Source: Escherichia coli (lineage in GTDB: Bacteria > Pseudomonadota > Gammaproteobacteria > Enterobacterales > Enterobacteriaceae). From it: a stretch of 64,000 bases of DNA. The translations under genes were made by a program, and so were the position numbers. Location of the stretch: assembly GCF_001677475.2 (NCBI RefSeq), contig NZ_CP015229.1; one strand, 5' to 3'. Below the pieces are notes generated by a model. It did no database searches, was not told the DNA's origin, and worked only from the letters and a program-made list of their open reading frames with translations. Of the stretch, positions 61,550-64,000 are shown piece after piece (position 1 is the stretch's first letter; every line of letters begins with the position of its first letter).

Positions 61550-61792
61550 GATCACTCCTTTGCACTAAAACAGCAGAGTGCCAGAGAGCGCGTCTCTACT
61601 GCTTTGATCCAACGAAGGAAATGTTAAAGTTTTGGCACTTGTCCAAAGCGTTATTTGATCGCGCCCTGGTCGTCCCTGACAGTAAATCCCAGTTCATTAG
61701 AAATAGCCTGCGCGGTTTCACGCAGTGGTTTCAGGAGATTTTTCTCCCCCACCTGTTTCAGACGTGATGTCGAAAGAGAAATCGACACGGCA

Positions 61793-62608
61793 CTACGAAT
61801 TGATATGTTCCTTGCTGTAACGCCGCTTCCACGCTGCTGGCGTTAAACCGGTGTGTTTGCGAAAAATCTGCCGGAAATAGCCAACGTCATTAAACCCGCA
61901 CAACGCCGCCACTTCCGTGAGCGATCGCGCTTCGCTAATTAACAGCTTTTCGGCTTCGCGCACCCGCTGGCGATGGATTGCTTCTGTTAACGTCAGATGA
62001 AACACCCGCCGGTAGACGCGCCCAAGATAATCGGCATTGCAGTACAGCTCGCGGGCCAGAAGCGCCGTAGAAAGCGGGCGATGATATTGCGTGCGGATCA
62101 GTTTCTGCGCTTTCCAGGCAAGGGTGGTGCCTGCGCCATCGGCCTGTTCATCAAGACGCGCGTCACGGGTGAGCTGCTGCAAAATGAGCAGCACAATAAA
62201 CTCCAGCGCCGGAGTGCGTTGATGCTTTTCCTGTTCGCTTAAGAACTGGCGAAACAGGGCCACCAGCGCCTGCGGATCGACAACCTTCGTTTGTTGCGGC
62301 ACGCTAAGATGAGTAAGCCAGCGAGGGTCGTTGTCCGGCGCTTTAACCTCAAAATGCAGCCAGTAAAATTTGAGATCGGCGGGAAAATCCTCCACCCCAA
62401 CATGTTGTCGGTTCGGCCAGAGTAATAAACTCTCTCCCGCATCGACCAGAAATATCCGTTCTTCTTCCTGAATCGTTAATCGACCTTTTTCGACAAAGAT
62501 AATTTCCCATGACTCCAGCCGCCTTGCAGGATGCCTCCCTACGCCACGGGAAATAAATAATCCACCATTTTGCACTTTAATCGGTAACGTCATGGATAAT
62601 TCGAGCAT
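61793..62608 (-). CDS. AraC/XylS-family transcriptional regulator (N-terminal cupin-like sensor, C-terminal HTH)
   Basis: 271-aa ORF; the C-terminus has the AraC-family HTH signature (...LTEVAALCGFNDVGYFRQIFRKHTGLTPAAWKRRY). Not the IclR-type yiaJ expected here in K-12. Confidence 0.8.
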   Translation of the reverse strand: MLELSMTLPIKVQNGGLFISRGVGRHPARRLESWEIIFVEKGRLTIQEEERIFLVDAGESLLLWPNRQHVGVEDFPADLKFYWLHFEVKAPDNDPRWLTHLSVPQQTKVVDPQALVALFRQFLSEQEKHQRTPALEFIVLLILQQLTRDARLDEQADGAGTTLAWKAQKLIRTQYHRPLSTALLARELYCNADYLGRVYRRVFHLTLTEAIHRQRVREAEKLLISEARSLTEVAALCGFNDVGYFRQIFRKHTGLTPAAWKRRYSKEHINS

Positions 62609-62833
62609 TGATATGTAATTTCCCGCTTATTCATTAATGATTAAACACATTACCTTTTGATTATTAATCAAAAATATTAATTTCACCTGATCCATTTCAC
62701 ACTTTTAAATTCAGGTCGGAATCGTCACCTTTTTTTACTCTTTTCTCGCCTTGTTGATATTCCCGTTCACGGCAGAATTAATCAGGTCATTTCAATAAAA
62801 CTAAAAATTGCTCCCTATTCACGAGGAATATCT
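62609..62833. promoter_or_regulatory. divergent promoter region between the AraC-family regulator and the GPH symporter
   Basis: 225-bp AT-rich intergenic region (ATTAATGATTAAACACATTACC...) between divergent genes. Confidence 0.4.
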
Positions 62834-64000
62834 ATGACCTCTACACCGATTACTACCGCTGATATCGCTAAAGGTAAAATTGACGATGCGTTATCTGTAC
62901 GGGAAAAAATAGGCTACGGCCTGGGTGACGCAGGCGGCACCGTAATAACTTGCCTGATCATGAATTTTCTCACCTTTTTCTACACCGACGTTTTTGGATT
63001 AACTCCGGCGCTGGTTGGCACGCTGTTTATTGCACTGCGCGTGTTTGATGCCATCTCCGACCCGGTGATGGGCGTCATTGCCGACCGGACGCAAAGTCGC
63101 TGGGGGCGCTTTCGCCCGTGGCAGCTATGGATTGCCATTCCCATCGGCATTATCGGCATCCTGACGTTCACCGTGCCAGATGCCAGCATGGGAGTAAAAA
63201 TCGCCTGGGCGTTCGGTACTTACCTGCTCCTTTCAGTCGGTTATACCGCCATCAACGTACCGTACTGCGCGCTGATCAACACCATGACCACCCGCCACAA
63301 TGAAGTGATCTCCTGCCAGTCCTGGCGATTCGTTCTCTGTGGCGTAGCGGGATTTCTGGTTTCGGTAGGCTTACCGTGGATGGTAGATCTCTTCGGTCAG
63401 GGTAATGCCGCGCGCGGCTATCAATTGGGCGTCGGCGTGCTGTGCGCCATTGCCGTGGTGATGTTCCTGTGCTGTTTTTTCTGGGTTCGTGAACGGGTGC
63501 CACTCTCCACAATGGGGAAATTTACCCTGCGCGAACATCTTGCCGGGCTGCGGAACAACGACCAACTGCTGCTGATGCTGGTCATGTCTTTCCTGCTGAT
63601 TAACGTCTTTAACATTCGCGGCGGTGGGTATATGTACTTCATTACCTACGTCTTACAAGGCAGTACGGGCTACACGTCGCTGTTCTTCACCATGGTCACC
63701 TTCGCCTCCATTATCGGCTCGGTGATTGTCAGCCCGTTAACGCGGCGTTTCGATACCGTCAAAATTTACTACTACACCAACCTGCTCCTCGCTGCGCTGG
63801 CGGTGTTGATGTGGTTCCTGCCCTCCGGCCCGGCTTATCAAACGCTGTGGCTGGCGGTGATCCTCGGTAATGGCGTAATTCTTGGCTTCACATTGCCACT
63901 GCACTTCTCATTGATGGCCTTTGCCGATGACTACGGCGAGTGGAAAACCCGCGTACGTTCTTCCGGCATGAACTTCGCCTTCAATCTGTTTTTCATCAAG
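62834..64000 (+). CDS. GPH-family (glycoside-pentoside-hexuronide) cation symporter, 5' part; gene continues beyond the window end
   Basis: Manual translation from ATG 62834 ([56 protein letters not shown]...) is open to position 64000, about 389 aa; N-terminal motifs resemble MelB/YicJ/UidB. Missing from the ORF track because no stop lies in the window. Confidence 0.8.

Follow-up and report, generated by a model that had tools for sequence, protein, structure and literature searches.

The right-hand end of the window, the 64,000-nucleotide stretch of Escherichia coli DNA analysed here, carries a common E. coli allele from which ~9–10 kb has been lost, with the flanks joined at an 11-bp imperfect microhomology (Table 1). 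Because this deletion took most of yiaJ together with yiaK–sgbE, ysaA is here adjoined by a module comprising an AraC-type regulator gene divergent from a predicted two-gene operon, which encodes a GPH-family symporter followed by a GH127 hydrolase. The module is widespread and conserved in enterobacteria and already annotated, yet experimentally uncharacterized. We consider a combined explanation likely, namely that the deletion lies beside a pre-existing module and that this module would serve the use of β-L-arabinofuranosyl oligosaccharides, the latter part being predicted from the relatives and active site of the hydrolase.

Table 1. Features at the right-hand end of the window, with the evidence on which each is placed.
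Feature	Position	Strand	Basis
ysaA (4Fe-4S ferredoxin-type protein), left flank of the deletion	61076..61549	-	annotated ysaA in matching genomes
yiaJ/plaR 3' remnant, last 46 codons plus stop, pseudogene	61651..61791	-	BLASTP, PGAP
Deletion junction, 11-bp imperfect microhomology ATCGACACGGC	61781..61791		alignment to the ST131 and K-12 sequences at either endpoint
AraC/XylS-family regulator gene, 271 aa, intact	61793..62608	-	Pfam AraC_binding and HTH_18; ECs_4457 of O157:H7 Sakai, WP_000891834.1
Divergent regulatory region, regulator/symporter, 225 bp	62609..62833		alignment of 74 enterobacterial intergenic regions
Perfect palindrome TTGATTA-T-TAATCAA	62657..62671		sequence; column conservation of 70% or more, 62660-62670
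CRP-like site CCTGA-TCCATT-TCACA	62686..62701		conservation of 90% or more in the TGAT and TTCACA columns (74 loci)
Strongly conserved block AGGTCGGAATCGTCACCTTTTTTTACTCTTTTC	62713..62745		conservation of 90% or more in most columns (74 loci)
Candidate sigma-70 promoter of the symporter-hydrolase operon	62751..62782	+	-35 TTGATA 62754-62759, 17-bp spacer, -10 ATTAAT 62777-62782
GPH-family (TC 2.A.2) glycoside:cation symporter gene, codons 1-389 of 466	62834..64000	+	TIGR00792, MFS_2; ECs_4458 of Sakai

The initial annotation had stated that K-12 carries ysaA followed by yiaJ(plaR) and yiaK..sgbE, which is correct, and had described an AraC-type regulator with a divergent GPH symporter beyond ysaA, an identification with which the open reading frames and the Pfam/NCBIfam assignments agree. 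Its proposed synteny comparison at ysaA–yiaJ bears out that the pair adjoins ysaA here, but shows the difference from K-12 to be a yiaJ'–sgbE deletion that kept a stub of yiaJ. In undeleted genomes (ST131, PF9285, JE86 and others) the order is ysaA-yiaJ-yiaK..sgbE-AraC-GPH-GH127-yiaT. The stub matches residues 237–281 of K-12 PlaR at 44 of 45 positions (BLASTP), and PGAP/RefSeq calls it in matching genomes an IclR family pseudogene, ‘incomplete; missing N-terminus’. On the other side of this 141-bp remnant, which had been overlooked in the initial annotation, YsaA of the deletion-sharing genomes L001 and L004 is 98% identical to its K-12 counterpart.

Endpoint sequences and distances were taken from eight intact genomes and junctions from ten deleted ones. 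In intact genomes ATCGACACGGC lies inside yiaJ and ATCGCCCCGGC in the 3' arm of the sgbE/AraC terminator hairpin, and the sequence missing between them amounts to ~8,989 bp (K-12-like) or ~9,919 bp (B2-like). The deletion begins at codon ~236 of yiaJ/plaR and ends a single base short of the AraC stop codon; besides most of yiaJ it has removed yiaK-yiaL-yiaMNO-lyxK-sgbHUE and the greater part of the sgbE/AraC terminator hairpin. Strains carrying it have presumably lost the PlaR repressor and the 2,3-diketo-L-gulonate/L-xylulose pathway; with the terminator 3' of the regulator gene gone, regulator transcripts may read through towards ysaA.

The junction is present in 425–426 of 5426 complete E. 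coli genomes (~8%), O157:H7 among them, and the deletion allele is fixed in O157:H7-type strains. In eight of the ten deleted genomes the AraC haplotype beside the junction forms a tight cluster (0–0.5% apart, and 1.5–3.6% from intact ones), indicating a single origin within E. coli. Two junction variants, ACA and CCC, exist; they were dropped as proof of two independent deletions, because the pattern would look no different had recombination with intact alleles stopped within the microhomology or a heteroduplex segregated. An identical junction also occurs in Escherichia sp. E1V33, the AraC gene of which is 2.9% from that of E. whittamii and 12.6% from the E. coli deletion haplotype, leaving trans-species polymorphism unsupported; independent recurrence is likewise not proven.

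The regulator combines an N-terminal cupin-type effector-binding domain (Pfam AraC_binding, residues 26–132, E 1.3e-9), as found in the sugar-responsive subgroup, with a C-terminal double helix-turn-helix (HTH_18, residues 184–263, E 4e-19; HTH_AraC, E 5e-8). Its PDB matches are AraC-type DNA-binding domains, and the protein is 100% identical in L001 and L004. Scores against the NCBIfam equivalog models for AraC (61.1, cut-off 208), MelR (38.6, cut-off 253), RhaR (40.7, cut-off 525) and RhaS (32.4, cut-off 288) all fall below the cut-offs, identifying it as a distinct family member rather than an ortholog of any of the four.

Neither gene had been thought fully represented among the open reading frames; that of the regulator is complete, whereas that of the symporter is indeed cut by the window end, to which it stays open for 389 codons from its ATG. 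Beyond the window its frame continues intact to the full 466 aa. TIGR00792, the GPH:cation symporter model, scores 289.3 bits on the 389 residues in the window and 331.7 on the full protein, above the curated cut-off of 231.35, and Pfam MFS_2 matches with E 1.1e-72. The best NCBIfam models, YagG-type and PRK11462 (YicJ-type) GPH, both describe uncharacterized proteins and score below their cut-offs (352.6 against 610 and 321.8 against 836), so that family scores fix no sugar. A 13-residue stretch of helix II, read unaligned beside the corresponding MelB stretch, RIWDAINDPIMG, resembles it, a comparison from which the coupling ion is not deducible. The MelB cation-site aspartates of this helix are Asp55 and Asp59, in the motif D-x-x-x-D.

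The glycoside hydrolase that the initial annotation predicted downstream lies just outside the window and was read from contig L098 and from near-identical genomes. Over 14,538 bp (window positions 49463–64000) L098 is 100% identical to the window, and it then continues through the rest of the symporter gene, an intact 656-aa GH127 gene and yiaT, so that a hydrolase does exist where one was predicted. On the O157 copy, Pfam calls the catalytic (PF07944, E 2.6e-112), middle (PF20736, E 1.3e-23) and C-terminal (PF20737, E 3.1e-25) domains, and the same three are called on the L098 protein. The protein matches the Geobacillus β-L-arabinofuranosidase 4QJY over residues 11–650 (E 1.4e-234) and HypBA1 (3WKW; E 1.3e-151). 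HMMER alignment to 3WKW places E318, E334, C336, C414 and C415, verified in L098, opposite Glu322, Glu338, Cys340, Cys417 and Cys418 of HypBA1; by this alignment the Cys nucleophile, the Glu acid/base and the Zn ligands are all kept. The N-terminus, MNISEVDLHKLTVSDPF, contains no signal peptide. The substrate had been given as unknown, which no longer holds wholly: relatedness to characterized β-L-arabinofuranosidases suggests that the protein has this activity.

Alignment of the 74 intergenic regions from enterobacterial species revealed discrete conserved blocks. The palindrome, partly conserved across genera, may form part of the promoter or operator of the regulator gene; an FNR site was considered there and dropped, the spacing being N5 and not N4. 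The CRP-like site, which resembles the CRP consensus TGTGA-N6-TCACA, is centred ~95 bp upstream of the predicted symporter transcription start and may bind CRP. The strongly conserved block occupies the position, next to the -35 element, expected of a site bound by an AraC-type activator, which makes it a candidate operator that we tentatively assign to the regulator; a clear direct repeat was sought in 62713–62745 and none was found. The putative promoter of the symporter-hydrolase operon includes the conserved columns CTTGTTGA and CAGAAT.A (74 loci). A strict sigma-70 consensus scan of the divergent region called no promoter, as expected because this promoter is taken to be activator-dependent. 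Upstream of ysaA, a conserved TGGCAC motif was considered as a sigma-54 promoter and dropped for want of GC at the -12 position.

On this basis, the symporter would import small β-L-arabinofuranosyl oligosaccharides, β-L-Araf-(1,2)-L-Ara being a likely example, together with H+ or Na+. Such sugars would derive from hydroxyproline-rich plant glycoproteins, arabinogalactan proteins or pectic side chains and be released by other microbes. The cytoplasmic GH127 enzyme, through its Cys nucleophile, Glu acid/base and Zn site, would cleave them to L-arabinose, which would enter the araBAD pathway that enteric bacteria possess. Once its cupin domain has bound a ligand, the regulator would activate the symporter promoter from the candidate operator, assisted by CRP at the CRP-like site, in a layout resembling those of araBAD and melAB. 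The searchable literature yielded no functional study of the enterobacterial AraC–GPH–GH127 module, PMC5238381 being concerned with Bacteroides GH127 only, and we therefore infer its substrate, inducer and direction of regulation; RefSeq annotates the genes as AraC family regulator, MFS transporter and GH127 protein.

The initial annotation had read the locus as a strain-specific island acquired at ysaA–yiaJ and displacing yiaJ. In line with such an insertion, ysaA is followed by yiaJ in K-12, which was rightly said to lack functional copies of the module and has only the pseudogene remnants ysaC and ysaD; moreover, several other genera carry the module directly beside ysaA–avtA, where a yiaJ remnant was sought and none detected, so that this adjacency exists without the yia operon. 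The 46-codon yiaJ stub and synteny nevertheless lead us to reject an island, an origin we regard as highly improbable. E. coli genomes that hold both yiaJ–sgbE and the module place the latter beyond sgbE and beside yiaT, the very spot at which ysaC and ysaD lie in K-12, and a further count argues against strain specificity: AraC and GPH genes are carried by 2312 of 5426 complete E. coli genomes (43%), and of 79 loci in other enterobacterial species about 75 show the three-gene layout with the same geometry, dozens of related species having the module in the syntenic place. In 2461 of the 5426 genomes, as in K-12, the module is internally deleted and yiaJ–sgbE retained. It is also conceivable, though in our view rather unlikely, that the deletion was the selected event, through loss of PlaR and the yiaK–S pathway, and that the module is a bystander, perhaps silent or decaying. 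PlaR controls about 18 plant-derived-nutrient targets in K-12 (PMC6958661), and the frequency of the allele, its fixation in O157:H7-type strains and the identical junction in a second Escherichia species all fit this account, as does a yia–sgb cassette that some genera possess and others lack, with the same genes on either side. A frameshift interrupts the GH127 gene of B2 strains, showing that certain lineages can dispense with the module. Against a bystander role, all three module genes are intact in the lineage of the window, and the conservation of module proteins and regulatory blocks across genera argues for purifying selection; besides, a strain could lose PlaR and still have an active module.

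The module may be functional but act on another substrate, such as aceric-acid-containing rhamnogalacturonan-II fragments, 3,6-anhydro-D-galactosides or another furanoside, which we judge improbable. Family GH127 includes activities other than arabinofuranosidase, and members of the family act in carrageenan catabolism (PMC5698469). No close relative of either the symporter or the regulator has been characterized, and the sole NCBIfam match of the hydrolase is aceric acid hydrolase (NF049879). That match, however, scores less than half of the equivalog cut-off (457.7 against 950) and is partial, its best stretch covering residues 252–649, whereas the best solved relatives, matched at full length and by a wide margin, are two β-L-arabinofuranosidases with which the catalytic and Zn residues are shared. 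The araBAD pathway of enteric bacteria, able to use the expected product, likewise favours β-L-arabinofuranosyl oligosaccharides, the substrates proposed above.

As it stands, the locus represents routine accessory-genome variation, a common deletion accounting for its gene order. Modest residual value lies in the conserved module itself, in the many genomes that lack PlaR and yiaK–S, and in the second Escherichia species with an identical junction. With some reserve, as a joint proposal falling a little short of probable, we suggest that the module would give E. coli, O157:H7 included, and many other Enterobacteriaceae direct access to β-linked L-arabinofuranosyl oligosaccharides of plant cell-wall glycoproteins and that, separately, loss of PlaR/yiaK–S through one junction would have arisen repeatedly, or persisted, in two Escherichia species. 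Recurrence or maintenance of this kind would suggest either a hot spot for deletions or selection in favour of the loss. The absence of PlaR and yiaK–S from ~8% of complete E. coli genomes, including those of O157:H7, calls for caution when K-12 regulatory maps are transferred. L-Arabinose catabolism affects the fitness of EHEC, and the module plausibly links it to the glycans of plant hydroxyproline-rich glycoproteins. Access to arabinofuranosyl oligosaccharides would, if true, constitute a cross-feeding route into this catabolism, contrary to the statement in PMC8489885 that E. coli is unable to access L-arabinofuranose directly. Relevance for plant and gut colonization by EHEC is indicated by PMC8489885 and PMC11127945, and the GH127 gene was noted to co-segregate with invasiveness of isolates from IBD (PMC11879602).

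Among known systems, Ara127N of Geobacillus stearothermophilus T6 (4QJY) and HypBA1 of Bifidobacterium longum (3WKW) resemble the module hydrolase over their full length, in the three GH127 domains and in the catalytic and zinc site, the Glu/Cys/Cys/Cys arrangement of which is conserved in the E. coli protein. The lack of a signal peptide in the latter is consistent with action on imported oligosaccharides. The host here, by contrast, is an enterobacterium, and the activity of its enzyme is a prediction. Bifidobacterium β-L-arabino-oligosaccharide systems follow a similar logic (PMC7889515, PMC7263609); in the B. longum cluster uptake depends on an ABC system (PMC7263609), whereas the module has a single-component GPH symporter, and it contains no GH121 or GH43 partner enzymes. 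Within E. coli, yicJ–yicI and yagG–yagH likewise pair a GPH symporter with a cytoplasmic hydrolase, but the hydrolases there belong to GH31 or GH43, the regulator type differs and the module symporter scores below the cut-offs of these families.

Closer in organization is melR–melAB, in which an AraC-family activator gene is divergent from an operon for a cytoplasmic glycosidase and a GPH symporter (MelB), with a CRP-like site in the shared control region, as found here. The module differs in placing the symporter first and the hydrolase second and in encoding GH127 rather than GH4; its regulator is not a MelR ortholog, and its symporter reaches 170–204 bits against the MelB cut-off of 456. 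The araBAD control region contains araI and a CRP site at -93.5. The predicted layout of the module, drawn from the conserved blocks, is comparable in that a candidate activator site adjoins the -35 element and in the position of its CRP-like site, although the regulator, by its score, is not AraC. K-12 itself retains traces of the module in the corresponding place between sgbE and yiaT, where ysaC (b4648) corresponds to the 3' end of the regulator gene and ysaD (b4649) to GH127 residues 559–621 (89% identity). The window presents the reverse state, with the module intact and yiaJ–sgbE deleted.

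The feature beside ysaA is real, and nothing unusual is needed to explain it: a frequent deletion allele has placed there an already annotated accessory module, consisting of an AraC-type regulator gene divergent from genes for a GPH symporter and a GH127 hydrolase. Open reading frames and family scores bear out the divergent regulator–symporter pair proposed after ysaA in the initial annotation. The regulator carries Pfam AraC_binding (residues 26–132, E 1.3e-9) and HTH_18 (184–263, E 4e-19) domains and belongs to AraC/XylS, without being an orthologue of AraC, MelR or RhaS/R. 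The partial symporter scores 289.3 bits against NCBIfam TIGR00792 (GPH:cation symporter; cut-off 231.35 bits), and a full-length orthologue 331.7 bits, with Pfam MFS_2 at E 1.1e-72. The remark that neither gene is fully represented holds for the symporter, which is cut by the window end, but not for the regulator, whose ORF is complete.

Features of the window discussed in the text
Feature	Position	Strand	Remarks
eptB	24354-26078		
lpf-type fimbrial operon	26334-31830	-	five genes, chaperone-usher type
yhjX	32166-33413		
malS	57463-59493	+	ORF/annotation
avtA	59671-60924	+	upstream of REP-containing spacer
avtA-ysaA spacer	60925-61075		REP-type palindromic repeats (gcctgatgcgctacgcttatcaggcctaca...)
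ysaA	61076-61549	-	
GGATCAAAGC...CTCTGGCACTCTG	~61556-61650	-	upstream of ysaA
yiaJ/plaR stub	61651-61791	-	141 bp
imperfect repeat at join	61781-61791		11 bp
regulator gene	61793-62608	-	271 aa; stop codon 61793-61795
divergent spacer	between 62608 and 62834		225 bp
palindrome TTGATTATTAATCAA	62657-62671		conserved block
CRP-like CCTGA-N6-TCACA	62686-62701		conserved block
33-bp block	62713-62745		conserved block
CTTGTTGA / CAGAAT.A	62754-62782		conserved; fits -35 TTGATA and -10 ATTAAT
symporter ORF	ATG 62834, open to 64000	+	389 codons to window end

K-12 has the order ysaA–yiaJ(plaR)–yiaK–yiaL–yiaMNO–lyxK–sgbH–sgbU–sgbE, then the small pseudogenes ysaC and ysaD, then yiaT; the initial annotation thus gave the order of ysaA, yiaJ and the yiaK-S operon correctly. 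Its reading that regulator and symporter replace the yiaJ junction must, however, be revised. Undeleted E. coli genomes (for example ST131, PF9285, JE86-ST02, 2018-10-2CC, AVS0343, CT30 and PKF11) show ysaA–yiaJ–yiaK...sgbE, followed by the convergent regulator gene, the divergent symporter and GH127 genes, and yiaT or aldB. The module is therefore the normal neighbour of sgbE, and the event is the loss of yiaJ'–sgbE by deletion.

Aligning the window to both endpoints in undeleted genomes located the join. The yiaJ endpoint falls between ...GAAATCGACACGGC and GTACGG..., and that in the sgbE/regulator spacer between ...GCCGGGGCTTCATCGCCCCGGC and ACTACGAATTG..., in the 3' arm of the terminator hairpin common to the convergent sgbE and regulator genes; the joined sequence reads ...GAAATCGACACGGCACTACGAATTG... 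and lies within an 11-bp imperfect repeat (ATCGaCaCGGC / ATCGcCcCGGC) that ends one base short of the regulator stop codon. The stub codes for the final 46 residues of PlaR, the yiaJ product (44 of 45 identical to K-12 residues 237–281). Insertion at ysaA is ruled out by this stub together with the endpoint alignment, and we regard the deletion and gene layout as practically certain. The absent segment measures 8,989 bp in K-12-like genomes and 9,919 bp in B2-type genomes, where an additional DUF4862 gene is present.

K-12 PlaR controls yiaK-S and ~18 targets for plant-derived nutrients (PMC6958661). The deletion would have removed PlaR as well as the 2,3-diketo-L-gulonate/L-xylulose pathway, and since the terminator that follows the regulator gene is reduced to four bases, read-through from that gene towards ysaA is possible.

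The avtA–ysaA spacer is 151 bp long in the window and O157:H7 and 38 bp in ST131, AVS0343 and O145:H28, a REP presence/absence polymorphism. The sequence 5' of ysaA, kept in Escherichia, Citrobacter, Leclercia and Kluyvera whichever gene adjoins upstream, probably serves in ysaA regulation; neither a canonical sigma-54 site nor an FNR site matches it.

Among 5,426 complete E. coli genomes, regulator and symporter occur at ≥80% coverage in 2,312 and the window-type junction in 425–426, including O157:H7, O145:H28, O169:H41, O78 and many animal and human isolates. A K-12-type internal module deletion is found in 2,461, leaving as remnants ysaC, which is the regulator gene's 3' end, and ysaD, which matches GH127 residues 559–621, while ~640 genomes lack a match to the module. 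The module/yiaT neighbourhood is an indel hot spot. B2-type strains have a frameshifted GH127 gene (ST131 locus L002, 18465-20434; AVS0343 locus L089, 14965-16934) and lack yiaT–yiaW, with aldB directly next; PKF11 carries a hicAB toxin-antitoxin pair where yiaT–yiaW would be expected (locus L091, 16994-17606).

Across the 816-bp regulator gene, eight of ten deletion genomes are 0–0.5% apart and differ by 1.5–3.6% from seven intact genomes; the association breaks down further to the right as well as on the ysaA flank. Such a pattern fits a deletion that arose once within E. coli and was later reshuffled by recombination. The junction itself exists in two variants, read at the repeat in the window and in three deletion-genome loci (L085, L093, L097): ...ATCGACACGGCA... 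(ATCGACACGGC) in the window and ~75 genomes, and ...ATCGCCCCGGCA... (ATCGCCCCGGC) in ~350 genomes of the typical O157:H7, Sakai and O145:H28 kind. What distinguishes them is precisely the pair of mismatched positions in the microhomology; separate deletion events, heteroduplex segregation or later recombination with intact alleles could each have produced the two forms. Unusually for O157:H7, strain TR01 carries the ATCGACACGGC variant, its ysaA flank 1.7% from that of Sakai.

Escherichia sp. E1V33 shares the identical junction and stub (locus L080, 7780-8075, against window 61545-61830), with only ~90% identity to the window from malS to the symporter. Its regulator gene clusters with that of E. 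whittamii (2.9%), where sgb genes adjoin the regulator, apart from the E. coli deletion haplotype (12.6%). Hence E. coli and E1V33 either lost the segment independently through this microhomology, a hot-spot recurrence, or retain an old polymorphism that has become homogenised as far as the junction. In E. whittamii the boundary has been locally rearranged too: a sgbU-like gene (297-aa ORF; locus L010, 7848-8741) adjoins the regulator, the terminator hairpin sequence differs, and no sgbE was detected. Across genera, the same neighbours occur with or without the yia-sgb cassette between them, and where the cassette is lacking no yiaJ stub can be recognised.

An exact-match protein search with the MalS allele of the window retrieved a contig identical to the window's right-hand part (GCA_019140535.1, ABBDLD010000020.1; 14,538 bp against 49463-64000, 100% identity, zero mismatches). 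Past the window end it completes the symporter gene (466 aa) and, after a 10-bp gap, encodes a 656-aa GH127 protein, followed by yiaT and yiaU, so the glycoside hydrolase gene anticipated downstream exists in the window's own lineage. The O157:H7 Sakai equivalents of the module are ECs_4457, ECs_4458 and ECs_4459. The hydrolase comprises three GH127 Pfam domains, and its closest solved relatives are beta-L-arabinofuranosidases of Geobacillus stearothermophilus (4QJY, E 1.4e-234, residues 11–650) and Bifidobacterium longum (HypBA1, 3WKW, E 1.3e-151). By alignment, the HypBA1 acid/base Glu322, nucleophile Cys417 and zinc ligands Glu338, Cys340 and Cys418 correspond to E318, C414, E334, C336 and C415, all of which the protein encoded by the identical contig possesses. 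No signal peptide was found at the N-terminus, and the sole NCBIfam match, to aceric acid hydrolase, covers only part of the protein and reaches half the cut-off.

The window's lineage is thinly sampled among complete genomes and its sequence is mosaic near the junction: the 23-kb backbone at 38000-61000 reaches at most 98.4% identity to any complete E. coli genome, and the regulator–symporter part (61795-64000) is 100% identical to strain 2018-05-2CC. Between eptB and yhjX lies a fimbrial operon (one major and two additional subunits, a chaperone and an 861-aa usher) that is an insertion relative to E. coli C; among the 5,426 genomes nothing comes closer to it than 82.6% identity (lpfA-E of E2348/69 and others), making it a divergent lpf allele.

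Scanning one genome per species recovered regulator relatives (61–94% identity) in 79 loci, from Citrobacter, Salmonella diarizonae, Enterobacter, Kluyvera, Klebsiella, Raoultella, Leclercia, Lelliottia, Pantoea, Buttiauxella, Cedecea and other Escherichia, among others. In ~75 of these, the symporter (80–98%) starts 215–261 bp upstream on the opposite strand (one outlier, 383 bp), with GH127 (75–97%) following within ~10–40 bp. Aligning 74 intergenic regions revealed discrete conserved blocks; a strict promoter scan of the divergent region called no promoter. With a start near 62789, the 33-bp block would run from about -76 to -44, with the CRP-like site at about -95, a predicted spacing that matches araBAD geometry.

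GH127 enzymes cleave off beta-linked L-arabinofuranose, present in extensins, type II arabinogalactan and pectic RG-I/RG-II, and HypBA1 acts on beta-1,2-linked arabino-oligosaccharides (PMC7889515). We propose that small beta-L-arabinofuranosyl oligosaccharides, freed by other organisms, would enter with a cation through the GPH symporter and be split by the cytoplasmic GH127 enzyme to L-arabinose, which would feed the araBAD pathway; a sugar bound in the cupin domain of the AraC-type protein would activate the symporter–hydrolase promoter, and CRP would supply catabolite control. We consider it slightly more likely than not that these oligosaccharides are the substrate class. A literature search found no experimental study of the enterobacterial module; a GH127 gene is noted in one study to co-segregate with invasiveness among IBD isolates (PMC11879602), and a paper on O157:H7 in plants considers L-arabinofuranose not directly accessible to E. 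coli (PMC8489885). The points of note are the junction common to a second species and the predicted beta-arabinofuranoside route. In layout the module resembles melR-melAB and araC-araBAD; its predicted chemistry is that of the bifidobacterial HypBA1 system, which is described as using an extracellular arabinobiosidase and an importer (PMC7263609), whereas the module has a single-component symporter.
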